A program made the translations under genes and the position numbers. A stretch of 63,522 nt of DNA, counting the filler, from Hausera hauseri (Eukaryota): the NCBI GenBank assembly GCA_046269625.1. It is 11 parts of 11 records of this genome, joined end to end, with 100 filler letters (N's around TTAATTAATTAA, not from the genome) between each part and the next. Parts side by side here need not be neighbours in the genome. Positions count along the whole stretch, not along the records: positions 14,315 to 22,660 come from JBJURY010678773.1; positions 22,761 to 27,073 come from JBJURY010641441.1; positions 27,174 to 31,421 come from JBJURY010677328.1; positions 31,522 to 36,781 come from JBJURY010296279.1; positions 36,882 to 42,143 come from JBJURY010295946.1; positions 42,244 to 46,278 come from JBJURY010803976.1; 5 more parts are not named here. One strand, given 5' to 3'. Shown here piece after piece: positions 22,549 to 46,278 of the stretch. Every line of letters starts with the position of its first letter. Position 1 is the stretch's first letter. The notes beneath the pieces were generated by a model that searched no databases, was not told the DNA's origin, and saw nothing but the letters and a program-made list of their open reading frames with translations.

Positions 22549-22900
22549 ATGGTAAAGGTGTTAGAGCAAATGAAGAAATTTCAGAAGAAATAGTAATTTC
22601 TACAGAAGACGATTATGTGCAAATTGTATCGTTGACATCAAAATTACTAAAGCAAGATCCNNNNNNNNNNNNNNNNNNNNNNNNNNNNNNNNNNNNNNNN
22701 NNNNTTAATTAATTAANNNNNNNNNNNNNNNNNNNNNNNNNNNNNNNNNNNNNNNNNNNNTATTACTGTTCTTGGTATTATTTTACCTCCATTTATACTG
22801 GTTATCAATGCCTCTTTTGGAGCGGATGGATAAAACATCAGCTTCATATGTTTTGGGTCATAATTGTCTGTCACTTGAACAATGTATATCTATATATTCA

Positions 22901-25565
22901 TTAGGAGACAAAGTGTTGTTCCAATAGGTACTCATTCCATCTTCTCATTTGAGAAATATATGATAGTAAAGTCCGTCGTTTCTTACTTCTGGCAGTGATT
23001 AAAGTCCATGTTCTTCTAGTGTTTTCGATGGGTTTAGATCTTTTCTCCTTTATCTTCTTTGGTGAGAGGTTATTTTCATCATTATTATTATCATCGTCAT
23101 CATTCTTGTTTTTGTTTTTCTGTTCCCATTCAGCATCCTTTTTTATCAGGAAACAGCTGGCTATGAATGGAATTAATGCATAAATAGTTTTCCATGCACA
23201 TCCGGCAGCTTGTTTAATGCCGTATCCTTTAGTTATCATGGTCAATATCGCTTTTATAAAGGCAAAGATATAATAAAATCCTATCCATCCAGAATTAAAT
23301 TGACCAAAAGACATATACCATCCCCATGCGGTCGCAAATATATCTTTAGCTATTTTCTTGGCATATTCTGGTCCCATCAAATTTTCCCAGTTAGCTTTCC
23401 CGGTGTGATCAACTAACACTCTCATTGCCATCTTTGTTAAAATTTTCTGTCTCTTTTGGGGGAACATCATCATTCTTCTATGATTTTCCATATCTTGTTC
23501 GCAAGACACACCCATCTTTACCAAATCTGTCAATGGCTTGTATGTTTGTTCGGTCTTCAAATTGATTAAACTAATCCCTCGAGGTAGAGTAATCTGCTCC
23601 TTTTTCGGCATTCTTATCCATAAATTGTCGCTTAATCAAAATGCTGGCGACATAATATATGTACAATTTTCATGTACATATGGTTTCTCCATAGGATCTA
23701 ATAATATACGAGTAATTGGTTGCAAGAAACGTGGCTTTTCCTTGTACCAAACAAGTAACTCCATGGTACAGTCTGTTGTTGGTCTCAGTTTGACAGCTAC
23801 TTTTGTACATTCAAAAGTTACAAGTGTCTCACCCATTGTTCGAGAGAACTTTCCTTCTGCATCGGGAGATTCAGCTGGATCTTTTATTATTCCGTCCGTT
23901 ATCGCTAATAGATATATTCGGTTTCTAATTATCTCTCTGTTGATTATCTGTTGATTATATCTCTGTTGACATAATTGATACCAGTTTGCTTTTCCAGTGT
24001 GATCAGCTAACACTCTCATAGCCATCTATGTTAAAACTTTCTGTCTCTGTTGATGGAACATCATCATCCTTCTATCTTTTTCCATATCTTGCTCAGCGTA
24101 CACACCCATCTTTACTAAGTCTGTTAATGGCTTATATGTTTGTTCAGTTTTCAAATTAATTAAACTAATCCTCCGAGGTGGAGTGATCTGCTCCTTCTTC
24201 GGCATCCTTATCCATAAGTTATCGCTTAGTCGGTATGCTGGCGACATAGTGTATGTACAATTTTGGTGTACATATGGTTTTTCTGCCGGATCCAATAATA
24301 TCCGGGTAATTGGTTGCAAGAAACGTGGCTTTTTTTTATACCAAACAGGTAACTCCATGGTACAATCAGTTGTCGGCCTTAATTTGACAGCTACTTTTAT
24401 ACACTCGAGAGTTACGAGTGTTTCGCCCATTGTTTGAGCAAATTTACCTTCTGCATCGGGAGACTCAGCGGGATCTTTTATTATTCCGTCCGTTATCGCT
24501 GACAGATATATCCGATTTCTAATTATCTCTCTATTCAGCTTACAATCATTTAATATTATCTCTCGATACATAGCATAAATATTTTCTTGTTGGAAGTGAT
24601 AAATAAAATCGATCTTATTATCGAAGTAAAGATGAGGCTTTACTTCTGATTTATCAATCTTCCTCTTAGCTTTTGTTATTTCTGTTGTGGATAAAAATAT
24701 CCCTTTATAATTTGTTCAAAATATCGTGTAATCACATCTGGTATCACTTTCTAGTTTAAATCTCATTCAATCTTGAGGATTTACTGAATATACTATGGTA
24801 GGAGTCTCAATCATATCCGATATTCGATCTAGTCTACTCTAAGATATTTCTTCTTTATACATTCGGCCTTTTGTTTTGTTAAATTTTCCTAGCTTTAAAA
24901 GAGCTAACTGAAATTAATCTCTCAACTTCATATGACATAATTGATTCACCAGTGTCGCATTATTTATTATAGTAATCACATTCAGGGAATGTCGTCATCG
25001 TCTCTGAGTATAGTTCGAAGAGGGCATCGTATTCCCTCAATTCAACTTGATAATCTTCTATGGCCACTATATTGTCTAAAATTTCACCACTGATATTGTT
25101 GGACTCACCCTTAAAATATCCTGTATTATCAATTGTCCCGGCAACAAAAATTCTTTTATTAATGATTTTTCCTTTCTGATCCTTCAAACGAATATTTCCT
25201 ATATTGATCTGTTTTGTTACAAAAGCCTCTATACACATTTGTTTACATACAGGAAGTGGCTGGAACGGAGTGGTTGGTACAACTATTGCTGAGTTTTGAT
25301 ACCAATATTCACAAATAAAGTGAAAATGATTTTGTCGATCAAAACATTCTTTCACCTTAGTTTTCACAAATTCCGACTCTTAATAAACGTAGTATTCTTT
25401 TCCGATATTGTAGTTAATGACTCCGGATTGGCCAATTGACATTTTTCTAAGTTTAGTAAGGAATGTATAGGACCTTCCTTAACTTGACTAAAATCATAAG
25501 CAATGATTGAAAGTGCTTTGGGCATCAGGCTAAACAGAAGGAGTATAGGTGTAATTTTTGTTAGC
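22901..25565 (-). pseudogene. Chuvirus-type (class III fusion-like) envelope glycoprotein, disrupted, with internal 594-bp duplication
   Basis: Signal-like ILLLFSLMPKALS then IIAYD..SLL.LEKC; MYREIILNDCKL; GETLVTLEC.KV.VK.R..DCTMELPVWY..FLQPITRIL; C-terminal hydrophobic segments. Confidence 0.85.
23387..24534 (-). repeat. In-frame tandem duplication (period 594 nt) inside the glycoprotein
   Basis: GGATCTAATAATA at 23694 vs GGATCCAATAATA at 24288; near-identical peptides in ORFs 24026-24571 and 23636-24025/22901-23611. Confidence 0.95.
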
Positions 25566-27073
25566 CATGATAAATCGAAATCTGTTTGTAGATTTCGTTG
25601 GCTCACCGATTGTTGTTGTGGACGATATTCTGTTCGTTGTTGTGTAATTGGAGCCGATTCATGTATTACTGTATGAACCAAACTGGTAACCCATCCACCT
25701 CTACATTCTACACATCCTTCAACATTGGCCTTTAAAGCACTTGTAGCAATTTCTATATTTCTCCCTATCTTTGTCCCGTTCGGATTTACTCCATTCATCA
25801 CCAATACCTTACACAAGAGATAAGATATGGCTGTTACGATTTTATTTCCAGATATGCCGGTGCCCATCATTCTAGATATTATATCTCTTTTCTAGATTTC
25901 ATTTATCCTCTGATTTTTTGGGATATCTGCAAATTGTTCACTAATCTTTGCGACCTCATTCTTTATAACATGCATTAGTGAATCCGGTATTTACAGATTA
26001 GTATTGAACTCAACGAATGCATTGTGCATTCTTCCTAACAAGGTATGTAGTAATGTTGTCAGTAATACATTATCTACGTCATATTCATCTTCTGTTGTTA
26101 GCAATCTTCGAACGACTTCGTCATCTCTGGCTTTCCTACCTTTCAACTGATAAAGTTTCGTCGTTCCTTTTGATCTGCAACGGTTTCTTTTATCTGTTAG
26201 CATTTGTTCTGATATAGACATATTCAATCCCGTTTCTATTTGTTGAACCTCATGCTGATGTTCGATTTTCCGTTTTTCTTTTCGCCTAAAATCGGTGATA
26301 ATATCGTCAATTATTTCTTGTTCTGACTGTTTATAAGTAATACACACAGGATTGTATCGGTTTTTCCAAATACCTACTTCATACAAAGTTTCATGATTCA
26401 ACAGAGTGCGTCCATAGAAACGTAACTCTATTTCTCCTCGAGGCTGAATAATCCCATTGATATTATTTTTCAATGTCATTATTGTATCCAATGACTTCAT
26501 TCTTAAAACATGAAAATCTTGGTTATACTGTTGTAGTGTAACCATTACTTCGGGGTTTTCTCGGACTGTCCTCACTCTATCTGCATATCGATAAATTATG
26601 TATCGTACGATATTCTGATATTGGCATGTACCCGCCGCATACATTAACAGCAAATCCAGTAAATTAGCAAATTGTTGATGGCTAATTGTTGGCGATAGTA
26701 GCATAGACAGATCTTGCCTAAACCGAGTACTATTTATTATTTCTTGGTTGGCATAGCTGGATATTTTTCGAACTATTTCTACGCCATCCTGATCTATTTC
26801 CACAGATAATAACTCATAACTTGTGGATTTTTCCTTTATTTTCTATTTCGTTATTCCTTTTATCTTCTCCTTGAGTGCACTTTCTTCACTGGTCTTACTT
26901 TTTTCACTTTTACTTCCCAAAGGCGGATTGAGTTCCGGAATCTTCAATTCTTCTCCTTGTATTAAAAGTTTATCCTTTTTCTTGACCCTTTTCTTTTCAA
27001 TATCCGATTTTTATGTGGGAGTCTTTTTGGGCCTACCAATAAGAACAATGACTGAGCTTTCGGCGTTCATTGT
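25566..27073 (-). pseudogene. Polyprotein segment upstream of and in frame with the glycoprotein; contains a ubiquitin-like domain (about 26333-26548)
   Basis: ORFs 25991-26803 and 25364-25870 are in the same frame (120-nt gap with stops); DTIMTLKNNI..P..IELRFYGRTLLNHETLYEVGI matches the ubiquitin pattern. Confidence 0.7.
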
Positions 27074-27173
27074 NNNNNNNNNNNNNNNNNNNNNNNNNNN
27101 NNNNNNNNNNNNNNNNNTTAATTAATTAANNNNNNNNNNNNNNNNNNNNNNNNNNNNNNNNNNNNNNNNNNNN

Positions 27174-28855
27174 AATCAAGAAGGTACATTTTATCTTGCC
27201 TTTCAGAGTGATATATCCTGCCCAATGGAGCAGTGCCCACGTTGCCAACAGTTATCACCATTTTAGCATTTCTTTTATAACTATGAAGAACTAAACCAAC
27301 GTTTGTCACTAACGTAACCCCGTTAACGATGCTACATTAACAATTAAACCCAGATCACTCGGTTACATCGATGTTCATACTGAGACTGATTCGAAGGACG
27401 GAATCTTTCTTCTAAGGGGCAGAAATGTTAAGGTTTGTTAATTAAGGCCTGAAAACATTTCGAAAACACGAAAATTCCAAAAACATAAAACATTTTTAAA
27501 ACATGAAAATATAAACAGATCGAATTAACAATTACTGAGGCATTAACACTGATCCTGATTTATCCATGCTTAACAATATTTTGTGATTCAAAAATCAAGA
27601 ATGATTTAACCGAGACTATGTGAATATTCTGTGATTAATAGTAAATCCTTGTGTACATAAATGTCCTTTATCTTTTAATTTTGTTAAACTTTTGATGGGT
27701 GTCTCCTCCGTTTCTCTGCACTGTACCCAAATTGTATCGAAAAAGCGGCAAAGTAATAAATTGATTAATCAAACTGGTAGTAAAATGCTTGGTGATAAAT
27801 TGTGCCAAGGGTTCAGTGTGTATAAGTATATTTATCTTAAAAATTATAGATATTTTATTTCCTTATTATTTTGCAAAGATTATTTCTATTATAGAATTGA
27901 AACTATTTTTATATTTTTAAATTTTGGGAATAAGACAACCGTGTGATTATGATAATATAATTTTGGTTGTCAATCTTTTAAATATAAGAATTAGTGTATG
28001 ACTTGTGGCGAGAGTTTATAGAGAATTCGCATACTACATTATGACTGACACGTTTTGAAGGCCGACGTCTATGAACCGAGCAAGAGGTTAATTGAGAAGA
28101 TTGTTAATGCTCATTAACAAATGGACGAATTTCAATATGTGGTTGTTCAACTTAAGCTTCAGAACAAGATGACTGTTGATAGTGAGTTATTTTGTTGTAG
28201 GGTTATTTGAAGAATTAAAAGTACGATTATTAGCATTGAAATTTAAATTGCCACACATCAGTTATAAATTTAGGCAGTATAAATATTGGTTCAAAGAAAA
28301 GTATCTTAATTTCTACTTTTGCAAACAACTGTCAGACGTATTTAAGTATATGTACAAATGGTCCAAACCATTCGTCACTTGAAAACTGTCACGACGCAAT
28401 GAAAAAATATGTTAATTATTTATATGTTTAAATTTAGTGAGTTGCTTGTGGAAGAGTAAGAAGATTGCTTAATTAGCACAAGTTTTCTGTTAACTTGGCT
28501 TCACAAATTTATTTAGAAAATAAATAAATAACTCCAAAGAGAAAAGTTATATTAAAACCACAACCGAACCAAGTAAATATAAAACAAATAGATCATAAAC
28601 AGAATACTCACTTATTACTGATCGGTCGAACTCATAAAATTTGTGGTTCAAAAATCATAAAATTTATGTTGTGTTGTATTGCAGTTTTACCAACTATTAA
28701 ATAGTTATTTGCCAGCTATTTTTAGGTTCAAAATAGTGGCAGAGAAAATTTACAGGAACAGTATGGTAATTTATTTATAGATTGTATTTAGTCATTTATT
28801 TTCAGAGTTCCCCGATCAATGGTTAAAGTACACAGTACACAACATTCCCCGACCC
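27174..28855 (-). mobile_element. PPT and start of a long 3' LTR (LTR begins at 28844; distal end not located)
   Basis: Minus strand GGGTCGGGGAA|TGTTGTG about 290 nt after the ORF stop; same arrangement at 45567. Confidence 0.65.
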
Positions 28856-29139
28856 ATAAAAATACGCATGCAAAAATAAAAAGGGGAAACAAAGATACAT
28901 AAGAGGTATATAAATACAAAATGAAAGTCACGAAGGAACAAGAATTTCAGTTAGTGAATAAGTAATGTTCATATACAAAGTGATACAATTAAAATGAAAT
29001 GAGTTTACAAAATATACAGGTGAAAATCAATGTCACGATCAAATGTTAATGTTAATGTTCTCATCTGATTATTCAACGACGATATCTGATTTGTATCTGG
29101 ACGACGAAACTGAATAGGAACTGATCTGGTTTTTGCTAT

Positions 29140-31421
29140 TTAATCATCAAGATCCACGTTTTCATAGTCGATGCGCGATTCGATAAAATCTTCTTTTTCG
29201 GGTTTTGAACCTTGTCTGGGCCGTTCTATTGGGATCAATATGGGTTGCTTCTGTTTCATTAAGAGCAGGTATTTGATGTGACCGTTAAAAAATGTCTCCG
29301 TAATAGCATCAGAAGTTAGTGTAGTATCCAGTCGTATCCGTAGCTTCGTGTTTAGTGAGATTCCATAATTTATGGGTAAATTTAACACTGCTACTGGACT
29401 CCGATAGGGAATAATGAAATAATGATTATTGGGCCTCTGATATATCATGCCAATAAGAAGGTTGTTCTCTGTACTCCATTTGTATAATTTTCTTGAGGAG
29501 ATGGTATCCTTTAAAAAATATGGTCGATCGATTCTGTGAATTGGTACCGGTAGATTCAGGAAATTCTTTTTTATTATTATTCCGAAGTTAAACTTTAATT
29601 CTTCCTTATTAATCAACGTATGTTCAATTTGCAGGGCCAATGTTTCGGTAGGGGACGGTTGAGTTTGACTTGCCATGCTAATCGTTTTTACTGGGTAACG
29701 CCAACGTCCAAGTTCACTTTCTTCGTCATCTTCTATGTTCTGGGGGGCCAGTATCTGCTGGATATCCATATTATCAATTATATCCTCTTCATTATCGCTT
29801 TCGGCGTCTTGTATTTCCACATTTTCTGGTGTAGCCAATTCTAAGTCTTCTTCTATGAAATCTTCCTTGCTATCGATCAATTTTTGGCTATTTGTATTAA
29901 CTACCTCTACTTCAATTTTGTGGACCCATGCAAATTCTTGTAGATACTTCTCTCTGCAGTAAAACAATTCTCCAACGTCTACTATGTTTTCATTTATCTT
30001 GTCAGGTGTCCAATTAGGTTCGCGTTTGATATCTGAAATCTTCTGAAGGATATCTAAAGCCAATTCCAGTTTCCCGTTGGTATTTTGTTCGTACATTTGC
30101 CCGTTCCTATGTTTTGGTAATCTTAGCTCCCTGGCTACATTCGTTATGTCTATTGTATTGAACGATACTCCGGTGACATCCGGGTGTTTCAATAGGTCAA
30201 TTGCACCAGCCAAATAATTTGATGGCACCTCGAACATTTGTAATGCTCGGTGTATGTCCAGTCCGATGACAATTGTTCCGAAAAGCCATTGAATGACTTC
30301 TTTTGAGACTTCGAAGATATCAAAACCATGGGCTTGTAAGGATTGAAAATCAATACCGTGCCTACCGGTATTGCAATTATGCACTCTAACTCTGTTCACA
30401 ACCAGGGAATGGTACAATATTTTACCCTTGATGTTTGTTATGGTCACTTCTAAGGGCAGTGAAGTATTATCCGGTGAAAATCCAAAGGATACCGTTAGGA
30501 TTCTAATTGTAGCTGACTGGCTTGTTTGCAGGTAATTTAATCGTGCATTTGCAATGTATTCAGGCGGAGTTTGAACTAGGACCATAGGCCTAGGTAAGGA
30601 TAAATGTTTTTCTGGCAAAAGCCATTCCAACATGATTACTAGAGGGATCCGATTCGGCCGGATTTGAATTAAATCTACACTCATGGGTGTATTTATAGCC
30701 AGTGATTCTTCCTCGAAGATGGTGGAGATATTGGATAGCGTGTATTGCGAGTTCTTTTTAGTTTTTAGAACGGCGGTTCCACGTGCCATATGTAGAATCA
30801 AACCATCTATTGATGGACATTCTGTGATAAATTCGTCCATATTTCTTTGCTTGGGTTCTGTTACAGTGATTATTTTTGCATGTCTATTGACAGTGGGACC
30901 ATACTTCAAATGATTCGGTATTTTAGATATTTGCGGGAACAACAATTCTGGATAGATTGACGCCTCACGTCTTATATGATTGTAGAAGGATCTCGCCATG
31001 GTTTTGGTAAAGGATGAATTTTTGGCTCCGTACTGTGCCAATAACTGATCGATGGGCAATATATCTGCATGGAAGAGAGGAAAATTTGTGGATGAGATAG
31101 TTTTATGGTGAATAGTATTTTCTGCTCTCATTTCAATCATGTTTGGTTTGTACTGATCTTGAAAGTTTTGTTTTTGGACTGAGTGTCGTTTTGAAATCTG
31201 TATTGAATTGAACTGACGTTTGAGTTTGTTTTGGTTTGAAAAAGGGACTGAATAGAAAAATTTGTCAAATTTATACTTACTTTTTGGTGTCGTTGTGCTG
31301 TCTGGTAACCAGACCAATAATAAAGCTGTAAAAATGGGACCTATTGTGCGTGGCGCATATGTGTGCATGCTAACTTGCGATGACATCAGCTGTGGCTGGT
31401 CACGCGATTTTAGCGGGCAGT
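29140..31421 (-). CDS. Large accessory protein (>748 aa, 5' open) with a degenerate DEDDh/REX4-like domain, acidic linker and conserved C-terminal domain
   Basis: Uninterrupted ORF; EVTITNIKGKILYHSLV..NTGRHGI..EVSKEV..GTIVIG resembles the REX4/ISG20 core; C-terminus homologous to 45880-46278. Confidence 0.8.
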
Positions 31422-31521: not shown

Positions 31522-34500
31522 TCTTTATTATTACCTATCCTTTGTCTGCAAGTGTTTATTATTCTTTTTCTTTCTTCTTTAAATGGTCTAGCTATTTCAT
31601 CATCATCTGGTAATTCACAAAATATTATATGATACCGTATTGCATTCAATTTACCCGAAAATCCACTTGCGTTTACTGTATCAAATTTATCTATATCCAT
31701 ATAATCCTCCGGGGTTAATATGGTGTTCACATCTCGTTCTAAGTAATCGTTCCATACTATCCGTGCTTCGTCTTCCTCAAAAAGTTTTATATCTTCTCGA
31801 ATAAGATCATCCTTTATAGCCATAAGTGCGTAAGTCATCCAACAATTAATCGCATAAGTTTCAGACTGAGAATTAGTATGTAACTCCTCACTATAATATC
31901 TAAACAGGTCCAAGCATCGATTAGCTCTCTTTGTTATTCATTTCGGAGTTCTACTTGCTAGTAATTTCGGAGAGAGTCCTCGAAGATAGTTAGTTATACT
32001 AGTTATAGGGAATGATTTAGTTATACCAGTTATAGTAAATTACGGTGGTCTTTTTTGCAAAAATGAGTAATTAACATTCGTTCTCTTCGACTTCCAATAA
32101 ATAGGGGTAGATATTTGTTTCTATCTCCGTATACTATACTTTCTTCATATGTTAGATCATTTTTTCTATTAGAAAATCAAATGATCGAAGGAAACAAATT
32201 ATCTGTGGTGTAGAATGACTTTTTAATCGAGCCTTTATTAACGACTCATGTTTTGGACACATAGGTTCATTACCTAATATTCCAATCATTTCGTTCCATG
32301 TTCCTATCACGATTTTAGTTGGTTGTAACCATATGGGTTGTAATTATATTTCCATTATAACTCGTTGTAGTAGACAAAATCCTTGATAGTATACCCTAGT
32401 TTGAAAATCAACCCATGGGCTGAATTTTACATCATCTATCGGAATCTTGTATGAGACGTATAAAAGACTGGATATTAAAAGTAGTTAATAATCATAGGTT
32501 GATTTCTTAAAATCTATTCCTGTTTCTTGTCTTAGTCGATTAAAATATGATTCATATAGAATCATATACAGTTTCATGAAGTTTTCTGTAACCTCATGTG
32601 GTAGTTGATCTATACTACCTTGCAGTAGTAGACAGTTAACAATATGTCTACGTCGTTCTCTAGGTGTTTCCCCGTATATAAGAAGTTTTGTATCAGGATA
32701 ATCGGGATAAAGTAGAGTGGCATAGTCGGTTTTTGGTTCAATATCGTCTAACGACTGTTCGTTTCTGTTGGCGATAATGCGCAAATTCGTTATTGTGTTT
32801 GGGATATCTTCCTCTTCTGGGCATATTCTTGTTGAATTTATCGGAAAGTGTGGTGGTTTATATACCAGTCTATACAACTCTTGGTCCATTTCTTCCCTTA
32901 ATGATGGAAGATTTACTGGGTTTATTCTTAAGGTATTTACTAATCTAAAATAGGGAATTACTTGATTAGCCATTGTATAATTATGTATTCCTTCATTATG
33001 GTAGCCAAAATCGTCTTTGTCTCATGTGTCGTTACTTTTGGTATCAGATTAATAGCCTCTCGTATTGCCTCTATTAGCTCTGGTGCTACATACTTTTTAA
33101 TTTTATATGGTTCCGTTCACTTCCATTTTTATTTAATTCTTCCATAGCCTCCTGTAGTGGTTTAGGTAGCTTCCTCCATTCTTCGTTATTAGCGTAATTT
33201 TTCCTCCCTTTCTTCAAAGGAAGTTTATATGTAGAGTTAATAATCTTCCAGCTTACTCTTTGATTTGGAAATGGCAATCTTTTCCCTAAGTGGAAAGAGC
33301 ATTCATGGATTATATTCTTCTTCCTATAGTCTGTCATTATTTATGTTAGATTGGAATAATCATCTTCAAATTGTGTTTGTTTTTGATGTTGTTTTTCAAG
33401 TAATCGTTGATTTGATGAAGGATCCAGGTGCATCTCCTCCAGTGGAAAACTTGAAGGTACTTCTTGGACATGATCTACTTTATTCTTACTGACTTCGTTG
33501 TTTGTTTCTTTATTTCTCCCCAAGAATTTATCATTCTTGTTATTATGCGGAAAATTCCTGCGACGACTCATCTTCCTATACTTTTTGGTTACAAATGTAT
33601 TCTTCACGCTGCCTTTTGAAAGGGTCAGCTAACACTTGATAATTGTTCAACATGCAGAACAACATTCTATATCGTAAAGCATTTAAATTGCCTGTTAGTT
33701 CCTTTTCATTTACTTGTTCCAGCCGATTAATTTCGATACTATCTTCCTCTGTTAACGGCGTATCCTCATTCCATTTCTTCTATTTTTTCTTTCCTTAATT
33801 CGTCTTTTATTGTCATTAATATATAAGTCAACCAACAATTAACCATAAACATATCGGATGTTGTCCTATTTATCAATTCTCTTCCGAATTTCCTATATAA
33901 GCCAATACATCTCTTTCCTATTTCTCTACCTTTCCTTTGAGTTACAAATTTTTCGCATAATGGAGACGTTTGCCGTAATAACATAAACATATCTATATTG
34001 GGTAGTTGCATTTTCTTCTCGCTTGCAGTGTTAATAAAAAGAATTCTTTCTTGCGCGCTACCAATAAACAGAGGTTTGTATCTTCTTATGTCCCTGTAAT
34101 CGGAATAAGCTGATATAAGTGAGGTTTTCTTGTTAGGTGTTAATTTATGGCTATGATTTCATGATTTTTATTGTAGATGTAATGTGTCGGCTCCATATTG
34201 GAATAAATTCGATTTGCTTGTGCTTCACTATTCATCCTTAACGTTCTCACTAATTTGTCATAATTCAGACATTCTCTGAACGTTTGATAACCATAAGGAA
34301 ATCGGAAAGAGGATTCCATTGCACTTACTTTGGGTTCATCAATTATGAGAATTGTATTATCCATATTTCCAGTCATTTCAAATTCTTGTTTACCATGACG
34401 TCTATTTCGATTGAAGTTTGGGGCGCACACAATTCTTCATTCACCAAAACATTTATCCCAATTGAAGTTTGGGACGCTTACGATCCTTAAAAATTCCATA

Positions 34501-36781
34501 CTGGTTAAAATACATAAAACTTTACTTGGTGGTAGTCCAGTGTTTAAGGGTTTTTTAGGCTCCCCTTCTTCGGGTATCTTTACAAAATTATCCATCTAGA
34601 TATTATTGTTAGGTTCTGTTAAATCGTCATTCCGTTCAGCTTTGCCACTGCCGCACAACGAGTCCCCGTTTTCTTCCATTTTCGAAGATTCTTCGCTGAG
34701 GTAAATACAGGTGTTTTGCTTCTCGAAAGTGTTTAATTGTTGCATCTCTTCCGTTGTATGAATCAATTCCTCCTTTTTCTTACTTAATCGTAATTGACAA
34801 TTACTTATTACGTCCTCTCGTTCCTTTTTGTACATTGCAGCCTTCTGCTGATTATCGTTTAGCAAGCAGAACAATAATCGATAACGTAAGGCATTTATTC
34901 TGCCCGACATTCCCATAACATTTACTTGTTCTAGTTGATAGATTTCTTCCCTGCCTTCCCTGGTTAATAATGTATATATATATCTGTATAGAGAGAGATA
35001 TTCCACAGTATTCGAATTTCTTCTTCTTCTATTTCCTCCATTTCTTGCCTTTTCAATTCATCCTTTATTGCCATCAGTGTATAAGTCAACCAACAGTTGA
35101 CTATAAACGCATTAGACGTTCTTTTATTCACCAGTTCTCCTCCAAAATTTTGGAATAATCCGATACATTTTTCTCCTATTTCTTTGGCTTTTTCGTGAGT
35201 TACATACTTACCACATAATGGAGTCGTTTGTCGTAATAAAGCAAATGTATTGATAGTAGAAATTTGTGGTATTTCTTTTCTAAAATAATGAATAAGAAAA
35301 TTTCGTTCTTGCATACCACCAATAAACAGAGGTTCGTACTTTAGCAGATGGCTTGAACAATTCGATATCGTCCACTGTTCTTCATTATCATTCTCATCGT
35401 AATCAACTGATTTAGATTTACTTAATCTCCAATTAACAGTATGGGCATAACGGATTAGTTCTATCGGAGTAAATATTTGATTAGATAACCATATTAGCTC
35501 ACATATTTCTCTCAAATCTTTTACTAATTTATCGTATTCTATGCAATTGCGTATTGACTGATATTCATAAAGGAACTCCAAGGGTGATTTTTTCAAATAT
35601 TCCGCTCGTTTTTGTGTCGATGTATTAGTGAAGGTGTAATCAGATCCCATTTTATATCATCCGCAGAAACTTGATTTGACATATTGTCCATTCCTTCACC
35701 AACAGTATATGTTCCATTTTCTTTCTCATTATCGGGTGTGTCCTTTAAAGGATTTGAGACTTTTATTACTTTCTCTCGTTTGGAAAAACATTCATCAGAT
35801 TTGTCGTCGTCATTACTAAAGAATTTGCCCATCATCAACAATGAAAGTATCCACAATAATATGGAGGTCCATGAAAAATTAGGGCGATGAGATGTAGCCT
35901 CAACTGCCTCTTCTGTACTAATCGTAGAAAGCAAGCATATTCCCATAAGGAACAACGTTCCCAATGAAAATGTAAAGTAACCTTTGATACCTAATGATTC
36001 GCGCTTTTTATCCTTTTCTTGAAGGTCTTGGATATGCATTGATCTTGTTTCGTTAGCCATTTTGTCCATATATTTAATGCTATTTCCTGCAAATTGTAAT
36101 CGATCTATCTTCATCCATTGTTCAGGAGGAAGATTACTATCTAATGGCTGTCCCATTCTTCTGTTCCAAACTCGTTTAACTTCCTCTACCCCGTTATTGA
36201 GTTTTCTACCTCCTATATTTATATTGTGATGTTTAAAAATTTTTATTGCTCGAGTAGTTGCTACATAATCATGATGTTGCGATCTTCCTTGACTAGCTAA
36301 ATCAGGAATCGTATAATATACTTCTTCACAACTTATCTTTAAGAAAAATTTGTCCAGAGCGGTTAATGCATTAGAATCCAATTTTAGGTCTTCGCAAAAT
36401 AATTTTATTATGGGCTTATATTGTTCATCTGTTATTCCGCACTTTTCGTGGTATTTACTAAGGAAATTTCTTAATTCCGTTACACTATTTATAGGTCCTT
36501 TGAGTAATTGTTGTGCGTGATTTATGCGTTCTGGAGTAGCTAACAGGAAATTCTCCAGCCTGTGTCGATTAGCTGCCTCTCTGGTCAATGGGAGTGGTGG
36601 CAAGTTCCCCCCTTTCTGTTGAGGTAATTCGAAGTAATTCTGTTCAGTTGGTTTGACTTCTTTGCGTTGTATCTGTTTAGTAGGGTCTATTTTCCTTAGC
36701 TTAGTATCGTTATACTCAGGGAATTTTGGACTTTCTTCTGATTGATGTTTTTCAATTTCCTCTCTTAGTCGTTTAATATTT
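31522..36781 (-). pseudogene. Decayed large polyprotein: two hydrophobic helices followed by 3-4 copies of an unrecognised domain
   Basis: Repeated PLFIG..ER, LLRQT.P, CIGL, NCW(L/M)TY.LM.IKD(E/D)L, G.SG..NA.RY..FC motifs; two TM-like stretches in ORF 35593-36603. Confidence 0.75.
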
Positions 36782-36881: not shown

Positions 36882-37617
36882 TCTTCTTTGGTTTATTTTC
36901 CAGGCTTATGTGTAAATAGATAATATTGTGATCTGATACATCTGCTGTCCCTATGTAGCACTCATTCACCCTATATCTGTCTGACTTGTTCATCAGGAAA
37001 TAGTCTATTCTAGAATGAACTTTGTGTGTAGCTGAGTAATGTGTGTACTCCTTCTCCGATCTGTGTAGGTCTCTCCAAACATCAAAAATTCCTGTCTCCT
37101 TAATTAAAATATTTAAGTCTTTTGATTTAGAGGATTTCTGTCTTTTGCTTGTTGTATCCATAGAGTAGTTTAAAACTGTGTTCCAATCTCCTGCACAAAT
37201 CAGAATTCCTTCACTTTCAGAAGCAATTTTGTCAAATATTTCTTTAAAGAAACTCCCATCACTTTTCGGTGGTGCATAAATATTTACTAGGGTAATCAAT
37301 CTATTTTCTATCTGGCATTTAATGAGGACATATCTACCCTCTTTATCTCTTTCTTCTTTTTTTAGATCAAAACTCAGAGAACTGGAAATTAATATGGCCA
37401 CTCCCCTTTTACGGCTGTTTTTACATGAACTAGAGAATACGTTAAAGTAACCAAATTTTTTTAATTTGTTATGTTCTTCTTTGGTCATATGTGTTTCCTG
37501 TAGAAATATTATCTGGGTCCAATCTTTTTTCATTTTAGACATAACTCTGCTCCTCTTGACTGGATTTCTCATGCCATTTACATTTACAGATGCAATTCTT
37601 AAGCTATTTGGCCCCAT
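36882..37617 (-). CDS. LINE-1 ORF2, APE endonuclease domain (3' cut by contig end)
   Basis: SVNVNGM, FLQETH, RGVAIL, EGRYV, NIYAPP, GDWN, DVWR, SRIDYFL, SDH. Confidence 0.96.
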
Positions 37618-38016
37618 TACTTACAAAATGATTTTCTACCTAGACGTGGACCCCTTTTAAACCACACATAGATGAACATAACAATGCAAGTGAACATATG
37701 AACAAAGCATGCAAATATTTTAACAAAATAAAAATAAAAAGATAATAAAATAGGAACAAACTGACCTCCAAGGTTAGAGGAGGCTTTTATTTCCTCCTCA
37801 ACAATGACCCCGTTGGTAGGTCGGGGAAAAGGCCTTTCGTTGAGAGAGGGTTCCCCATAGAGAGTGACTGCGGTGTGAAACACCTCTGCCATCCTTATAG
37901 TCCAACGTTAATTATACAAAGGTCAAAAACGCTCTCCCGAGAACATAATGAATTATACTGACCCTCTGTCATGTCCAAATCAAATAAGATAAACCTCTGT
38001 CTATTAAATCCTGGTT

Positions 38017-39007
38017 TTATATTTTCTTACTGTGTCCCCTATGATACTCCTGAAGTTTTTCTCTAGCTCTCTGGGCGGTGGATGGTGCCTTCCCTCTTTG
38101 ATTCACCTGTTGCCATCCCTGTAGTTCCCGGAGCCGTTTTCCTGGATCGCTATCCTCCTCTGTGGGTTCGGGCTCCTCCACCGGGAATCCTCGAGTTTTC
38201 ATGTCCCGTAACACTTCCCGTGCGCTGTCGTAGCTCCGTACTCCGGTGCTCCAGTGGATTCTCATCTTGGTGAAGGGTGTTTGAAAGCGGATATTTTCTT
38301 CCTTTAGCATTTTATTTATCCCTGTGTACTCTTCTTTTTTTAACGATCTCTGCCGGGTAGTCGTGATCAAAATACAAAGTCTTGTTACCCATCTGGATCT
38401 TTGCTTTTTTCCAAGCTTCTTTCAGTACCAACTCCTTAGTGGTAAACTCTTGGAAGTTAATAATAATGAGTCTCGGCTGTTCCTCTGGTCGGGGTTTTGT
38501 GGCTAGAGATCGGTAAGCTCGTTGTATTTTTAGGTCCAGGTCCGGGGGTATAGTTAGCTCTCTTCGCAGAAGTTTTTCAATGAATTGAAATACTGAGTTC
38601 CCCTCTTCTCCCTCCGTTACTCCGAAGATGCGCATGTTGTTTCTTCTGGCTCTGGCCTCCAGATCTATGAGTTTATGCTGTAGAACTTTTTGCTGGTCCA
38701 AGCTGTTACATAGCTCCTCGGTTACCTCCGCTGCCCACCGCTCCACCCGCTCCACTCGTGTCTCCATCTCGCCCACTCGTTCCGACAGAGTTTGTACCTC
38801 TGTTGTCAGGCTGTCGAGTTTAACTTTAATTTCTTGACCAAGTTGGTTAATTTCACTTCTCAGATTCCCATTGTCCCCTTTAATGTCTTCTTTTAGTTCC
38901 TTTACCGCTGTTAATATATCTGCAGGGTCCATGCTAACGTGGGCGCTAGCATGTGTTGCTTCGGCTTTAGCTTTCGTCGAGTTTCCTTTGTCCTGAGGTT
39001 TTGGCAT
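38017..39007 (-). pseudogene. LINE-1 ORF1p (Transposase_22 type), one frameshift near 38330; teleost-like
   Basis: Coiled coil, DLEARARRNNMRIFGVTEGEE, IQRAYRSL, YFDHDYP. Confidence 0.93.
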
Positions 39008-41059
39008 ATTTTGAAAGGTAGATTTTTGATTTTTGATTTCTAAAGAGTCTTTTCCCCCCCGGGCAACTGTCTCTGTGACAGATATTTAGCTGTCGAGGTA
39101 TTTAGGGTGGGTTTGCATATCAATCTGGGAGAGCGATTCTACCTATGTCTGGCTACTCCATAAGTTGAACCGGAAGTCAATCGATCTCAGAAATTTTAAA
39201 TATTATAAAGCCATCTTTTGGTACTTTTTGCAATCTGGGCAGATGCCAAGTTTTACTGGGAAATGAAATCAACATCTTCATAAAGCTTGTCAGCAGAATC
39301 TATGTAATGAAGATATGTAAAATGTACTTTCTGAAATGACTGACAAAAAAAATTCACCCTTTTTACGATATGGGCACAGCTAATGGCCCATGCACCCTTT
39401 CCTGCAGTGTAGGCACTTATGCTTGATGCTTAAGTTGCTGCAGTATTCTCTGAAAGGACATGTGGGAGTACACTTCATAACTTGTAAAATGTTATAAAAA
39501 GGAGGAAAAAAACCTTGACAGAATAACAAACTGAATGGAGAGCAGCGCACACCGCTTGTGCAGTATTAAAAAACAGTGAAACCAAGTGAGAATGGATTGA
39601 TTGCATCAGCGTTGGTGCACCCACTCTCACTTGGGTCAAATATAAACCTAGCTTTACTCTCCCTCTCTTTATTGCCGTCAGATGGTGGCATGAATTTATC
39701 ATAACTCTGGTGAATAGTTTGAAGTCTTTACTTTTGACACAAATTGGTTTGCCACAGTTTTGCACCATGCTGACCTGCTAGCTGGCTGTAAACTGTGTAA
39801 TGAATCGCACGAATGGATGTCTCATTAAGCAGTCAGTATGGTCGCTCGACTGGCGACGGGTCGACGCCCGGTCACGTGGTTGTTGGGCATTCGTTTTCGC
39901 ACAGACCTTTCATAGTTTCCGAGACTCCCCCGCGCCGAGCTCCTGGGAAACCCCTCCCGCTTTAGCATACGTCACTACATGGAGTTTCTCCCTGGCGGAG
40001 GAGTCCAATGCAAACAAAAAAAGTAGACTTGTCATCCAACGTTGTTTATCTACAATTGGGTCCTGGATTATAAGCTTCCATGTTTTTATCAGACAGATTC
40101 CACCATGAAAAACCATCTGTTTTATCCCCTTTTCAGAGTTTTTGGCTGTTTGACTATCTTTTATAAAATCGCTGCTTCCCAGTCTAAAGTCAGCTTTGGA
40201 AGTGAATCGTTTTTTTTTTCTTTTTTTTTTTTTAGAAGCGTGTTTGAAGCAGCGCTTTCAGCACTAGAAAACACTCCCACAAACTTCTGGCCAATCACAC
40301 AGTGCAGTTCGTATGTGTTCTCATGTGGAGGGGGTGAAAAGTTCGACCCGCGGGTTGCGACAAGACGTGCCGATATTTCGACAATGCAAACTGAATGACG
40401 TAATTTTCGTCATGAAACTGCAACATTTCGGCAGTTCGGCTGCAGCATACTGGAGCCTTTACTCTGCATCTCATTGAGATACTCTGTATTTCCTGAACTG
40501 CTTTCCACAGTTTTCCGACAGCTCAAAGAGCAGCTGGAAATGAATCATTTCAGTTATTTTAGCAGACATTAAACCATCAACATGGCTCATGCATCGGAAA
40601 TCCCCGCAGGTTGGATTGGAACTTTCTATCCATGAGTTATGTTGAATCAGAAACTGATACTAATACTGGATCAGACCAGCCCCATCCCTAAAATAAACAT
40701 ACAGTTTTACTGAAGTTGAGAAACCATCTTTTAAAGCTCATACAGCTCTGTAATTAAAAACTTTTACGTATTCACACAAACTGTTCTCATGTGGACAGGG
40801 TCGTAGACTTGTAATAGTCAGGACCAACAGATAAAAATGCTCAATTGAATTAAAAAAGTTATTTATTATGAAATGTCATTGTAATGTTTGATGCTTTCAT
40901 TTAAATTCTGTGTATTTTTGTTTTTATCTGGTTGCAAAGTAATCTTTTTTCTGAAGACAGGTTGAGTTTGATAGACTGAAGGAGAGGAAACTCTTGTATT
41001 ATGGAACAAAAGCTTTGACTTCTGTACTGAAGTTCTCTTGCATTATGTTTTGACTGTAG

Positions 41060-41444
41060 CAGCCTGCTGACACCACTGAAGGTACAGAGAGAATTCCACT
41101 CGGGGTGGTTGTTGGAGCACCAACAAACTCTGCAGGAGAGTCTTCAACTAGTAGCACAGACACCAGGTGACTTTTAACTTGTATTGTAGTGATACTATTC
41201 AATTAGTTTCAGTTCTGTTTATTTTCTGTTTTTTTCTGCTACAACACACAAATAAGAATCCTTATAATTTATTTTTACTCTGTTCTTAGTTATAAACAAT
41301 TTTTCTAATTAGATGAAACCACTAAATCCTTAATGTTTAAACTGTCTCAATGTTTCTTCACAGTGGACAGTCTGCAACAGGGACCCTCTGCCTGTCCTCC
41401 TCGTCAACGCTCTTAGAGATCCTTGAGGCCATCAAACATTCTAC
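41060..41444 (+). CDS. Two possible host exons (41060-41166, 41364-41444)
   Basis: AG/GT boundaries with compatible phase giving an open QPADTTEG...STDTS-GQSATGTLCL...IKHS frame; product not recognised. Confidence 0.3.
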
Positions 41445-42243
41445 GTAAGACTTTTGTTTTGTATATGATATTCCAGCAGCGCTGCATTGAATCAGGAACA
41501 GTACAAATATGTGTGTGTGTTACATGAAAGGCGAATTTTAATCAACCCCTCAACCCCTCAACCCTCAATGTACCGCCAGCGGTACATTCCCAGTTTGTGG
41601 TTACTTCCCGCCTCTTTATAGCCTGACCCACGCAACCAGGAACTTTTAATTTTCAGAATAGGCTGTTCAAACGATTCGATTCGGTGTCTTCTTTCGATTG
41701 ACACCACTTTTGATCCCCTGGGTTCATCTATAAACTCTCCAGAGCCCAAAATGTGTGGCAAGCCCCTCTGTCCCTTTTGTCTGTGGTACATTTGATTGAC
41801 TAGAATCGGCCAATTGGGTCTGAGCTTCATTCTGACACCACAGCTGTGTAGCCAATCATATTACCTTTTATTCAATATGCAGCTTTGGAAATGAGAAAAA
41901 AATGTTGGTTATAATGTATTTTAACTTTAATAACTAAATAGTTACAGTTACAACAATTGTGACTTCTAAAAATTAAAAATTCAGAATACTTTACATCAAG
42001 ACAAGGCTAGTGATTTACTCCAAAGGGGTTAAAAGCTGTAGCTAATTTAATTTGGATTAGCAGGTTAAACATAGCCTGGCCCTCGCCTTCCTACACAGTT
42101 CCGCTCAGTTCTAGTTTCCCTTCACTGCTACGTCTGGGATTTCNNNNNNNNNNNNNNNNNNNNNNNNNNNNNNNNNNNNNNNNNNNNTTAATTAATTAAN
42201 NNNNNNNNNNNNNNNNNNNNNNNNNNNNNNNNNNNNNNNNNNN

Positions 42244-42625
42244 TGTCAGGCGTTCATCTTCATTTGTCCATATCAAAGGTTTATTGTTATTTCTACTGTA
42301 CCAGGGTGCGATTTCCGTTTTTACTATTGTTTTCAACTGATGCAGGAAATCGCGTACACAATTCCATCCGTGGAAAATGTAGTATTGCAGTTGTCCGTCG
42401 GCTTTAATAGGCACAACCAGCATTCCGACGGCGATTGGAACATGTTTTTGGTTATATGTGTTGTGCCGTGGTAATATAGCTTCGATATTGTCATATACTA
42501 CATATGCCGGACTGTCTGTTTTTGACCAATCAATGAACCTGAGTTCCTTTTTGACGGGCATGACATACATTGTGTTGGCACAGGGGTCAAATGTAAACAT
42601 TCAACCTTTGATGCGTGTCAACATA
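42244..42625 (-). pseudogene. Polinton pPolB fragment (exonuclease I region)
   Basis: MP..K.LRF.DW.K..PAYVVYDNIEAIL...QKHVPIAVG...FHGWNCVRDFL. Confidence 0.75.
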
Positions 42626-45578
42626 TAAAGGTCAGCCTCGAGAATACGATTAGGGGCAATTTAGGAAGCTTATTCTCTCAATTCATTATCTATACGTGTC
42701 ATCACCTATTCATACTTCTGATATTCATAACCTCTTCATAATATAAGTTCTAGTTCACTATGTTCGAATTTATCAGCGGCACTTCATTAAATATTAGCCA
42801 TGAGCTAAACAAGAATATGGATTTCATTTTACTTATGTCTATAAATTTTAAATAGAAGCGGGTTTCGAAACAGTAATCAACAGATAGACAACAGAAGTGA
42901 TGAGTCTATTTACATCTTGAAATAATCATATAAAATATACGGATGGCTCAAGTATGAATTAGTGTGGATAGCAAAATAAATACAAGTATTAATATATCAA
43001 AATACAGGTATTTATATAAATAAAAGTCGAAAACTTTTATTCGAGTTCGAATTATCTAACAAAATCAATCAAATAAAATCGGCCATTCGAATTGACTGTA
43101 ATTCCTTGCATACTCATAAGCTACATAAATTCATAAATATTAAATTTAAGTAATTCGGGATTCGTATAAATTGAGAGTTCAATAATAATATACAAAATAA
43201 CAATCGAAATATGAAGCTATACAAGACATCGTCGTCTTAGATTCCCATTAATCCAGTCATTCAGTCCCAAACCGGCGTCCTCTAGATAGTTTTACAATTA
43301 AATTCAACTGGTATACTAATTATACTCAATATAAATATATAATGAATTCCCATCGGACACCAGACTGAAATACAGAGTTGACGCTTTCATGTAGATCATA
43401 ATGATGTAATAGTATTAGTTTGTCACGTTTCTCTTTATCGTCAAATTTTAACTCATCGCAATTATGTCCTGTTAACCAATTGATAATTCTTCTAGTTTCT
43501 CCGACAATCGTTCATACCACATAGCATGCATCAATAGACTAAATACTTGAAATAATCTCAACCAAATTTTATATGGCAATTAGTAACATATTATTCCCGA
43601 TGATATTAAATCGACTGAATCTAGAATATACTTCACATATATATATCCACCCAGATTTGGCAATCTATCTATGGGACCGAAGTACGATAATTCTGCTCTA
43701 TATATCTCAAGCATCAATATATAATCTCTGGTGAAAATGGACACTCATATAACTACCTTCGGTGGAAGGTCTATTTATTCAAGGTCTCGTCATCTTCCTT
43801 AATTTTTACTGCCGTTTCAGTTATCTTCTTTTCAACTTTTATGTTGTCTCTGATATCCCCATTTCATAGATATATAAATTGCTACGTTCATCTCGTCAAA
43901 TAATTCCTAATATCTACAATCAATATCATCGATCATATGCTCCACTCCTAAGCTCCCAACCATCCCCTTTTCGATCTTTTACCTATCTAAACAGTGATGA
44001 CCCTATACTTTAATTTATAAATTCTATATTCTCGTTCCTTTAAATAATAGATTAATTCAACCATTTCTATATATCAATGTTGATCTGTATCGTCTGTTCC
44101 GTAACATTTCCCACGCAAGTATTCACTCATTCTTTCCCAAAATCAACAGTTTATTCATCGTATTTATAATTTATAAGACTTTATTACAAAAATACTACAT
44201 AGACAAAATGGGATTGAGCAACTAAGGAGGTCGATTAAATGATACGGTGCTTAGAAGTATTTATATAATTACCGTTTATAACTTTCATTTGAAATCTTCC
44301 ACCATCATCAGTCACGCTATCAGCATTAGCCTGCATTCCAGTAATCACGGTCATTCCAACACTTGGTACTTCTTCATCGGAAGAGGTGATATTCGTAGAC
44401 GGATCAGAATTCAAAGTTGAAATTTTCGTAGATCTTTCAATGATAACACTATTCATAACCAAATAATGATAATAAGACACTAAAATACAACATTCTCACC
44501 AGTAAAAACAGTCTAGTTGAAGTACTTGGAAATCGTACTTGGATTACTAAGACAAGATAAAGAAATTCTCAATTTTGGTTGGTTTAGTTTGTTTTCGGTC
44601 CGTTTATATAGCCTCCAAAATGTAAATTTAATTTTTTTAACTCTGTCATACGATTCGTTTTGATATTTAAATTTGATTCTTCAATTTGCGTCGATCGTAT
44701 TTTTCAATTCAGTTACTACCCATGTCGATTTAGTTACTACCTATGTCTTTCGTGTTGTTTTGATTTTCAATTCGTGTTGAACGTATTTGTTAATTCAGTT
44801 ACTACCCATGTCTTTCGTGCTGAATTATAAGTTTGTGTTTGGAAAAACAAAATTCGATTTCCATAATTTAGTCTGTTACTAAGTGATTTATTTACCCTTT
44901 TTACTTTTGAAAATTCGATTTTTATATTTCCTTATTTACTTTTACAAGTTCGTTTTATATTTTCTCAACCGCAATCAATCAACCGACCATCACTCAGCCG
45001 CTCCCTAGTGGGTTCACAATAGAATTTAGAAGAACAGAGACAGTAATGTATACCCATCAGTGGGTTTGACAAGATAAAGAATTAAAGAAAAGAAAAATAT
45101 ATTTGACATTAAAGTATTTACAAAATTAATGAAATCACCAATACCATACAGTAAAGTATTTGCAAATATTAAAGTTAACAATGTTATTTTTCAGTTACAT
45201 GTTATTGTATTACACTGAAATTGAAATATGAATTCGTAGACTGGTAAAATTGATAAAGTTGGTATTAGTATGTTAAGGCACCCTTAACAGTACCCAAAGG
45301 AAAATTCTAGAGACTTAAGCTCAAAAATTTGTTCAGTTTTGTTGAATACTGCCTGTTTATATAGTTTCAATAATCTAAATTTAGTTACGAAATCGGGTGA
45401 GAGAATTTTCTCTCGGTAAACCCGAAGACCTATTTTTAGCAGTTCATGACAGTCTACAACAATTTATTTTTAGTATCAGAATCGGGTGAGAGTATTTTCT
45501 CTCTATAAGCCCGATGATTTAATTTTAGACTGCTAATTAATCAGCAGCGATCTACAATTCTACAACACTCCCCAACCC
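42626..45578 (-). mobile_element. PPT and long (~2.9 kb?) 3' LTR-like region; LTR start at 45567, end tentatively ...TTGACA at 42626
   Basis: GGGTTGGGGAG|TGTTGTAG; TATATAA at ~44604-44610; short tandem repeats upstream of TATA; end coordinate tentative. Confidence 0.55.
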
Positions 45579-45879
45579 TTAAAACGAAACTTACTAAAAG
45601 AATGAAAAATACCGACTAAATAAGTAATATTTACACTAAGAAAATAATCTGATTAAATAAGCATTTCTGAATACAATACAAACAAATAAAGGAAATACAT
45701 AAAATGAAATGTACAATAAAAGAAAGGCAAATAGTGAATGTTAAACACAAAGAAAGAATAATAAATATACAATATACATAAGGTGTATAGAGAAAGTCAA
45801 ATCAATGTTAAGTCAGTTATAATGTTAATGTCAGCAATTTTCTGTACTGGGATTATTTCAAATTGAACTAGTTTTGAAT

Positions 45880-46278
45880 TCATCCATCGAGATCCACACT
45901 CTCTTGATTGATTCTGGTATTAATTACATCGTTTTCATCTGGTTTGTATCCTGCTCGAATACGTTCAATTGGTATTAAAGTAGGTTGTGATTGTTTTATC
46001 AGCAGAAGGTATTTCAAATGTCCGTTATAGAAAGTTTCAGTTACTGCATGAATACTATTTGGCGTAACAGGTTTAACTTTTAGTTTTGTACTAAACTGTA
46101 CTCCGTACTTTACGGGTAGTTTTAGTACAACGGTCGGACTTTGATAAGGTACCAAAAAATATTGATTATCAGGTCTCTGATATATTCCTCCAATTAATAT
46201 ATTCCTAATCGAATTCCATTTTGATAACTTTCTGCAGGAAATAGTTTTGCTCAAATAATATGGTCTTTCTATTTGGTG
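45880..46278 (-). CDS. C-terminal domain homologous to the end of the 29140-31421 protein (partial)
   Basis: LIG.IYQRP.N.YF..PY.SP..VL.LP..YG...TKL...TETF.NGH.KYLLL.KQ.QP.LIPIER...VDLD shared by both. Confidence 0.9.
   Translation of the reverse strand, partial: HQIERPYYLSKTISCRKLSKWNSIRNILIGGIYQRPDNQYFLVPYQSPTVVLKLPVKYGVQFSTKLKVKPVTPNSIHAVTETFYNGHLKYLLLIKQSQPTLIPIERIRAGYKPDENDVINTRINQESVDLDG

Follow-up and report, generated by a model that had tools for sequence, protein, structure and literature searches.

Probable fragments of Burro-like giant Ty3/Gypsy retroelements whose envelope lies in frame, from the Hausera hauseri assembly

The stretch of DNA analyzed here (63,522 nt, filler included; hereafter the window) was drawn from the Hausera hauseri assembly GCA_046269625.1 and consists of 11 contigs of 4-8 kb each, joined by spacers; that two contigs are neighbors in the window has no genomic meaning. 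Three of these, contigs 4, 5, and 8, are probably fragments from different copies of a Burro-like giant Ty3/Gypsy long terminal repeat (LTR) family in which the envelope lies in frame within the polyprotein, while contig 6, a high-copy coding repeat, is only a possible member. An earlier note, made from the sequence alone, had assigned contigs 4, 5, 6, and 8 to one family of giant enveloped LTR elements. That assignment holds for contig 4 by its domain order and for contigs 5 and 8 at the level of the family, and is unproven for contig 6. Contig 4 is placed as Burro-like because the domain order of its relatives (protein P0003 and metagenomic locus L001) matches that published for Burro ORF1, and contigs 5 and 8 because relatives of their open reading frame (ORF) occur together with a glycoprotein-pol polyprotein in L001 and with a likely LTR, primer site and gag in a second locus, L004.

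In the account by Arkhipova and Yushenova (PMC6431247), Burro ORF1 is ordered Gag, CCHC, MATH, Ubi2/SUMO-like, BCL2, an env matching mononegavirus fusion glycoproteins, protease (PR), dUTPase, and reverse transcriptase (RT). Contig 4 (22761-27073) carries on its minus strand a decayed frame comprising, in order, a ubiquitin-like domain (Ubl), a Bcl-2-like domain, a signal peptide and a fusion glycoprotein (G). The Ubl and Bcl-2-like domains ahead of G are diagnostic features that the earlier note had overlooked. The features of contig 4 are as follows.

26347..26722, minus strand: helical module and ubiquitin-like domain of a gag-env(-pol) polyprotein (PF00240, E 0.01)
25690..26065, minus strand: Bcl-2-like domain (BH1/BH2-like), stop-interrupted in this copy
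25499..25555, minus strand: hydrophobic signal/anchor before G (Kyte-Doolittle window 1.89), aligning with the same segment in relatives P0001-P0003
23147..25507, minus strand: Monjiviricetes/chuvirus-type fusion glycoprotein G with a C-terminal transmembrane segment, decayed (PF24664; 72% identity to P0003, 35-36% to L001)
23387..24535, minus strand: part of G in two overlapping versions, set 594 nt apart and with 86% identity, a likely chimera

Four of the six contig 4 pieces match Monjiviricetes_fusion (PF24664), with single-piece E-values of 6e-34 and 9e-28, and with stops read as X the E-value for the contig is 5e-82; the chuvirus-type glycoprotein reported in the earlier note is thereby borne out. 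A search for longer relatives of contig 4 returned three proteins, among them P0003. The 1,130-aa P0003 is 63-72% identical to contig 4 over aa 296-1124 (from the first codons of the contig 4 frame to 24563), a part in which the contig 4 copy has accumulated 12 stops and 2 frame changes. The leading 295 residues of P0003, which lie beyond contig 4, hold a zf-CCHC knuckle as well as a stretch similar to the L004 Gag (PF03732; E 7e-19), and the in-frame position of Gag and CCHC ahead of the aligned part indicates that the Gag of the contig 4 copy was cut off by the contig end. Contig 4 also stops short of the expected protease start, and in-frame pol was seen in the relative L001 only. No nucleoprotein or RNA-dependent RNA polymerase (RdRp) family match was found in the contig pieces scanned with Pfam.

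The helical-Ubl module of contig 4 aligns with aa 84-243 of L001 at a local score of 86, against 30 +/- 5, and 0 of 300 shuffles reach 86. The matches of a two-row Ubl profile are nearly all to ubiquitin/Ubl chains (best single-domain E 0.015). With a five-row Bcl-2-like profile all 60 matches listed were Bcl-xL/Bcl-2 (best E 0.005), and P0003 matches PF00452 at E 0.055 over profile positions 6-100 of 100. The individual profile signals are weak; the place of the Bcl-2-like domain in the frame agrees with Burro. Differences between the duplicated G segments are distributed over codon positions 1/2/3 as 14/12/53 over 185 codons, a bias indicating that the two segments diverged as genes under selection. 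Contig 4 is thus likely a recombinant or an assembly chimera of two related family copies and not a fresh duplication.

Metagenomic relatives supply the parts that contig 4 lacks. A scan of JGI metagenomes with patterns from three nuclease-intact relatives of the contig 5 ORF (described below) yielded seven loci (L001-L007) out of 77 candidate stretches. In L001 a single ORF of at least 3,012 aa runs through Ubl, Bcl-2-like, G, PR, PR, RT, RNase H (RH), integrase (IN), and a hydrophobic membrane tail, with Pfam matches to PF24664, RVP (twice), RVT_1, RT_RNaseH, Integrase_H2C2, and rve. By Pfam these pol matches are Gypsy-type, which argues against BEL/Pao. The chuvirus-like glycoprotein of the earlier note is upheld as to the type of G. 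An Anakin-style capture by a BEL/Pao element appears unlikely; G occupies a place between gag and pol, in the same frame, in a polyprotein that is probably Gypsy-type, an arrangement already described. Downstream of the polyprotein are a coiled-coil-like ORF and then an ORF encoding a cupin-DEDDh protein that is 25% identical to the ORF of contig 5 (E 8e-10). The earlier note had proposed checking whether the modules co-locate. Relatives of the contig 4 modules (G and the helical-Ubl module) and of the contig 5 module do occur together in L001, whereas contig 6 matched no locus; the link between contigs 4 and 5 is one of family, with no physical join.

Two further stretches of L001 may be mentioned. 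Positions 3806-4427 hold the two tandem aspartic proteases, 72% identical in DNA over 88 nt, and positions 7844-9037, past the integrase, hold a hydrophobic segment, a domain of ~270 aa and a second hydrophobic segment; positions 1-1512 of L005 resemble a longer version of this tail. In L002 and L007, TRAF/MATH and RING ORFs lie upstream of the cupin-DEDDh ORF; neither was found on the window contigs, and no RT was found on contigs 4, 5, 6, or 8. The longest relative measures 14.5 kb, contigs 4, 5, 6, and 8 measure 4-5 kb, against the total of more than about 30 kb expected of Burro-like giants, and one LTR-like segment was measured (1.6 kb, in L004). P0003 as query against the JGI metagenomes found no relative, nor did the queries P0002, A3, A5, and contig 6 ORF1 against IMG/VR or A5 against GTDB.

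The contribution of contigs 5 and 8 is the likely last gene of the element and the start of the sequence that follows it.

29143..31419, minus strand, contig 5: likely last ORF, 759 aa, stop-free, 5' open at the contig end
about 31035-30595, minus strand: predicted cupin/2-oxoglutarate (2OG)-oxygenase-like domain of this ORF (predicted structure)
about 30513-30025, minus strand: apparently dead ISG20-like DEDDh exonuclease domain (ISG20L2 profile match), followed by an acidic linker
29538-29146, minus strand: C-terminal domain in common with contig 8 (58% identity)
28839..28855, minus strand, contig 5: T-rich tract, G-rich motif resembling a polypurine tract (PPT), and TGTTGT; likely 3' LTR start at 28844, the same post-ORF position as the LTR start in L002-L005 and L007
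45883..46278, minus strand, contig 8: final 132 aa of another, divergent version of the last ORF (131 aa aligned at 58% identity, E 3e-44)
45562..45578, minus strand, contig 8: second PPT-like motif and TGTTGT (shared motif); likely LTR start at 45567

A HMMER search over 1.84 billion representatives returned eight relatives of the contig 5 ORF at E<=0.001, and a word-based search with the same ORF returned none. The family profile matches ISG20L2 (E 2e-20) and ISG20 (E 1e-10). The five catalytic positions, occupied by D,E,D/E,H,D in active DEDDh enzymes, are T,S,A,R,K in contig 5. The active set is kept in all seven metagenomic loci, and the ExoI D/E is absent in 5/5 further aligned proteins. 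By these residues the contig 5 ORF is predicted to be a catalytically dead DEDDh exonuclease, and the pseudo-nuclease label of the earlier note was right, as were its report of a second, diverged copy on contig 8 and of a PPT with TGTTGT after both. In an AF2 model of the ORF only a beta-rich domain at residues ~136-270 is confident (pLDDT mostly 70-90), and the nuclease call therefore rests on sequence profiles and not on fold. For this model VIA-align gave a cupin at Z 10.3 (root-mean-square deviation, rmsd, 2.5; 93 aligned) vs ALKBH6 at Z 10.1 (rmsd 3.9, 138 aligned); the front domain is predicted to adopt the double-stranded beta-helix fold, with cupins and AlkB/prolyl hydroxylases tied. 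An HxE-like pair is present in 4 of the 13 aligned rows, contig 5 not among them, no distal His was recognized by eye in the alignment, and the 2OG oxygenase triad (HxD/E...H...R) is not recognizable in contig 5. The top Foldseek row, the vaccinia C16 N-terminal domains (E 5e-4), superposed with rmsd 11 and was rejected as unspecific. P0004, the top-scoring relative of the contig 5 ORF, has the same short acidic motif at its end, followed by a RING finger.

The contig 5 and contig 8 ORFs differ by codon position 1/2/3 as 40/28/81, a third-position excess, and the two contigs seem to represent diverged subfamilies. The contig 5 ORF groups, on long branches, with the dead proteins P0004 and P0006 rather than with L001. 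Since decay differs among the contigs, and contigs 5 and 8 are diverged, the fragments do not derive from one copy.

Behind a T-rich tract, and 296 and 313 nt past the ORF stops of contigs 5 and 8, stands the sequence GGGTYGGGGAR followed by TGTTGT. This pattern has two matches in the window vs 0.03 expected, and, having been built from those two sites, shows only that it is shared and specific. Downstream of TGTTGT no DNA similarity between the two contigs was detected; contig 8 continues beyond 45567 with 3.3 kb of mostly non-coding DNA containing short internal repeats. In five of the seven loci (L002-L005 and L007) a conserved motif ending in TGT follows the DEDDh ORF at 170-470 nt, and L006 stops inside the ORF. 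In L004 this motif stands at the head of a segment of 1,582 bp whose ends are near-inverted (TGTTAGGG...CCCCAACA), after which come a motif resembling a primer-binding site (4621), which we take to be of the tRNA-Lys type, and gag. Such a layout would be compatible with a collapsed LTR, with a circle or with a tandem copy, and the succession of ORF, LTR-like segment, primer site and gag suggests that no other gene is likely to stand between the cupin-DEDDh gene and the 3' LTR. With up to 4 mismatches allowed, a search of contigs 5, 6, and 8 for the L004 primer-site motif gave no match. Past the likely LTR start of contig 8 lie two short ORFs (42244-42600 and 44238-44495) that are unmatched in Pfam, in the loci and in the other contigs and may be flanking or LTR-internal. 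For the terminal 119-aa ORF of this contig, a likeness to Polinton polymerase found no support in BLASTP or phmmer comparisons with the Polinton pieces of the window.

Contig 6 is a different matter.

31522..36781, minus strand, contig 6: decayed frame resembling a polyprotein, made up of a helical N-terminal region, a hydrophobic segment and three copies of a ~250-aa domain

The repeat-domain polyprotein described in the earlier note is thus recovered, with one strongly hydrophobic window, in the N-terminal region ahead of the repeats. The repeats diverge by codon position 1/2/3 as 17/17/35, a pattern indicating divergence under selection. Contig 4 was found in two sequencing runs, X1 and X2, with shares of 0.35 and 0.10, the first of which may be the source sample. 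In these runs contig 6 has 30 and 29 of 30 bins covered, by 9,659 and 1,320 contigs that are mostly <95% alike, and it therefore represents a large and diverse repeat family and not a single-copy host gene. In both runs the summed contig depth over positions 36098-36625 is several-fold that over the remainder of contig 6, a hint that the domain there is better conserved or occurs more widely. The coding strand is A-rich like that of contig 4 (A 0.394 vs 0.387), which it also resembles in dinucleotide bias. No homologue of contig 6 was found in the seven loci, 16 proteins, the protein collection, Pfam, PDB, IMG/VR, GTDB, or the Atlas. DUF594 (Atlas 0.84, recognition 1241) fell below threshold, PDB matches were noise from the hydrophobic segment only, and a single-sequence AF2 model has a mean pLDDT of 43. 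That contig 6 belongs to the Burro-like family has slightly less than an even chance.

The earlier note had also described the four contigs as AT-rich, each with very long coding tracts. They are AT-rich, at 31.7-35.3% GC, with contigs 3 and 11 hardly less so (35.5% and 37.5%). A single long open frame occurs in contig 5 only: the relevant coding of contig 8 amounts to 132 aa, the contig 4 and contig 6 copies are decayed, contig 4 by its stops and frame changes, and contig 6 is in many pieces.

Several observations weigh against placing contigs 4, 5, and 8 in one family. No single molecule joins the three. The seven loci are only 23-26% identical to contig 5 and all nuclease-intact, with contig 5 in the dead subgroup. 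L001, which joins the modules, is without the conserved 3' motif, and no LTR was found in it; contigs 5 and 8 yielded neither an LTR end nor a primer site or target-site duplication, and the tract before the likely LTR start is C-rich in L002-L005 and L007 vs G-rich in these two contigs. Taken singly, the Ubl and Bcl-2 calls are weak (E 0.005-0.055), though concordant; for the Bcl-2-like part alone, 4 of 300 shuffles matched the score of contig 4 vs L001. Neither BIR nor ankyrin domains turned up among the window pieces and the 12 locus ORFs covered by the scan, all of them partial sequences. Finally, the functions of all the element's proteins are inferred, and no RNA data set was listed for contig 4, which counts neither way. 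In a rival view contigs 5 and 8 would be the 3' ends of a related, envelope-less LTR family, distinct from that of contig 4, with which the cupin-DEDDh gene is shared by exchange. Exonuclease ORFs are common to unrelated retroelements in rotifers (PMC5408684), G can be reached in one of the seven loci only (L001), and contig 5 clusters away from L001 with the dead proteins. That arrangement is nonetheless quite unlikely, given that in L001 itself a gene of the cupin-DEDDh family sits behind the G-pol polyprotein, that the Gag of L004 matches that of P0003, a close relative of contig 4, and that Burro-type TRAF/RING genes occur in L002 and L007.

Far less probable is the proposal that contig 4 represents the envelope of an Anakin-type BEL/Pao element or an isolated endogenous glycoprotein of chuvirus origin. 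The PF24664 match would suit it, and such insertions are described as common in mosquitoes in the portion of PMC7642597 consulted, but P0003 largely refutes it: G lies there in frame behind Gag-CCHC-Ubl-Bcl-2-like, in a protein 63-72% identical to contig 4, and in L001 ahead of pol in Gypsy order. The absence of nucleoprotein and RdRp matches from the pieces scanned also speaks against it. For contig 6 the balance is even that it comes from a different high-copy mobile element or a virus-derived repeat, the family then comprising three of the four contigs. This is favored by its lack of matches in the collections searched and by the lack of any X1 or X2 piece bridging it to the other contigs, in a comparison that covered one contig only. 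Set against this are its coverage in both of the runs that contain contig 4 (one possibly the source sample), its A content and dinucleotide bias resembling those of contig 4, and the variability of accessory ORFs in Burro-like elements.

Ty3/Gypsy elements are copied by tRNA- and PPT-primed reverse transcription and then integrated. As a member of this class, the Burro-like element would be copied by ordinary LTR reverse transcription and integration. Its single polyprotein may thread the membrane of the endoplasmic reticulum, leaving Gag-Ubl-Bcl-2 and Pol in the cytosol and G in the lumen, and would be cut by signal peptidase and by the element's own protease; the signal peptide of G could double as a membrane anchor for Bcl-2. 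G would let particles bud and then fuse with other cells, while the Bcl-2-like part may keep the host cell alive. The last ORF may have RNA as its target, either that of the element or small RNA. In some subfamilies it would work as an exonuclease; in that of contig 5 it would bind nucleic acid without catalysis, in the service of counter-defense. A bolder reading would have the fragments belong to an undescribed and widespread branch of Burro-like enveloped elements, possibly reaching beyond triclad flatworms and constituting a true infectious endogenous retrovirus, with a counter-defense cassette of TRAF/RING, Bcl-2, a cupin-ISG20 fusion repeatedly decayed to a non-catalytic RNA decoy, and the triple-repeat membrane protein of contig 6. 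As a whole it is unlikely, though it has some chance of being right.

The remainder of the window is varied. The ratio of CpG observed to expected is 0.57-0.69 in contigs 1, 2, and 7 vs 0.83-1.06 in contigs 4, 5, 6, and 8, and on account of this split the window probably draws on more than one host genome; the missing CpG depletion of the latter four is compatible with an unmethylated host. The earlier note had set contig 7 apart from the element, correctly.

36882..42143, minus strand, contig 7: LINE-1-like, unrelated to the element (endonuclease PF03372, E 8e-12; CpG observed/expected 0.57)

Contigs 3 and 9 have a long Polinton-like stretch in common (14315-17630 and 47755-51014, 70-87% identity), and contig 9 holds pieces of a Polinton-type polymerase, with matches to DNA_pol_B_2 and Endonuclease_7. 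Contig 11 begins with a short repeat also present at the ends of contigs 3 and 9, which suggests that these three may come from one host genome; positions 59627-62486 of contig 11 hold exon-like pieces beside a Gypsy remnant, with one weak Armadillo match (PF00514, E 0.005). In contig 2 (6909-14214) a Helitron Rep/PIF1 helicase ORF of 1,068 aa on the plus strand is joined to a Gypsy PR-RT-RH on the minus strand. Contig 1 (1-6808) holds a decayed non-LTR element with RT (PF00078); upstream of the RT two cysteine-protease-like motifs were seen by eye, with no Pfam match, and presumably resemble those of NeSL-type elements. Rfam gave 0 matches across 22761-46278.

Among known systems, as represented in the parts of the cited papers available, the closest are the giant planarian Gypsy-like elements Burro and GYPSM1 (PMC6431247, PMC13465017), which have in common with the present family Gag-CCHC, Ubl, a BCL2-like domain and a mononegavirus-type G in frame between gag and pol, as well as RING ORFs (here in L002 and L007) and apoptosis/ubiquitin cargo; TRAF/MATH is here an accessory ORF in the relatives. 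The IAP module of Burro1 has been reported to protect planarian stem cells (PMC13465017). Three features of L001 go unmentioned in these accounts of Burro: the terminal ORF with a cupin and an ISG20-like exonuclease, the tandem pair of proteases and the membrane tail that follows the integrase; compared with Burro, no BIR or ankyrin was seen here, and the single LTR measured in a relative is 1.6 kb. The GAG-ENV-POL errantiviruses of Nematoda, Bryozoa, and Platyhelminthes (PMC13524379) are likewise Ty3/Gypsy elements with a gB-type class III env between gag and pol, and in the same survey chuvirus-like glycoproteins also occur beside gypsy pol genes. Its gag-pol-env screen had a ceiling of 10 kb, and its main text uses none of the words Burro, Bcl, and exonuclease. 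Anakin, a mosquito BEL/Pao element (PMC7642597), resembles the present family in combining an LTR element with a chuvirus-type glycoprotein, and differs in that G is here fused into a Gypsy-type polyprotein and in that no Ubl/Bcl-2 cargo is mentioned for Anakin in the sections consulted. The rotifer LTR elements Juno and Vesta (PMC5408684) also carry an exonuclease as an extra last ORF. Their ORF3 is an RNase D-like DEDDy enzyme with intact catalytic residues, whereas the exonuclease here is an ISG20/REX-like DEDDh domain behind a predicted cupin and is dead in contig 5. No terminal cupin-ISG20 gene occurring in both live and dead versions came up in the passages and search listings covered, and the primary Burro annotations may record such an exonuclease ORF. 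The core architecture, in which a Gypsy-type element holds its env in frame inside gag-pol, has been published before; the candidate for novelty is the cupin-ISG20 last gene. The finding extends the little-studied Burro class, among the few retroelements that combine an envelope inside the gag-pol polyprotein with anti-apoptotic cargo; the cupin-ISG20 last gene offers a marker for finding such elements, and its live vs dead forms a testable case of retroelement counter-defense.

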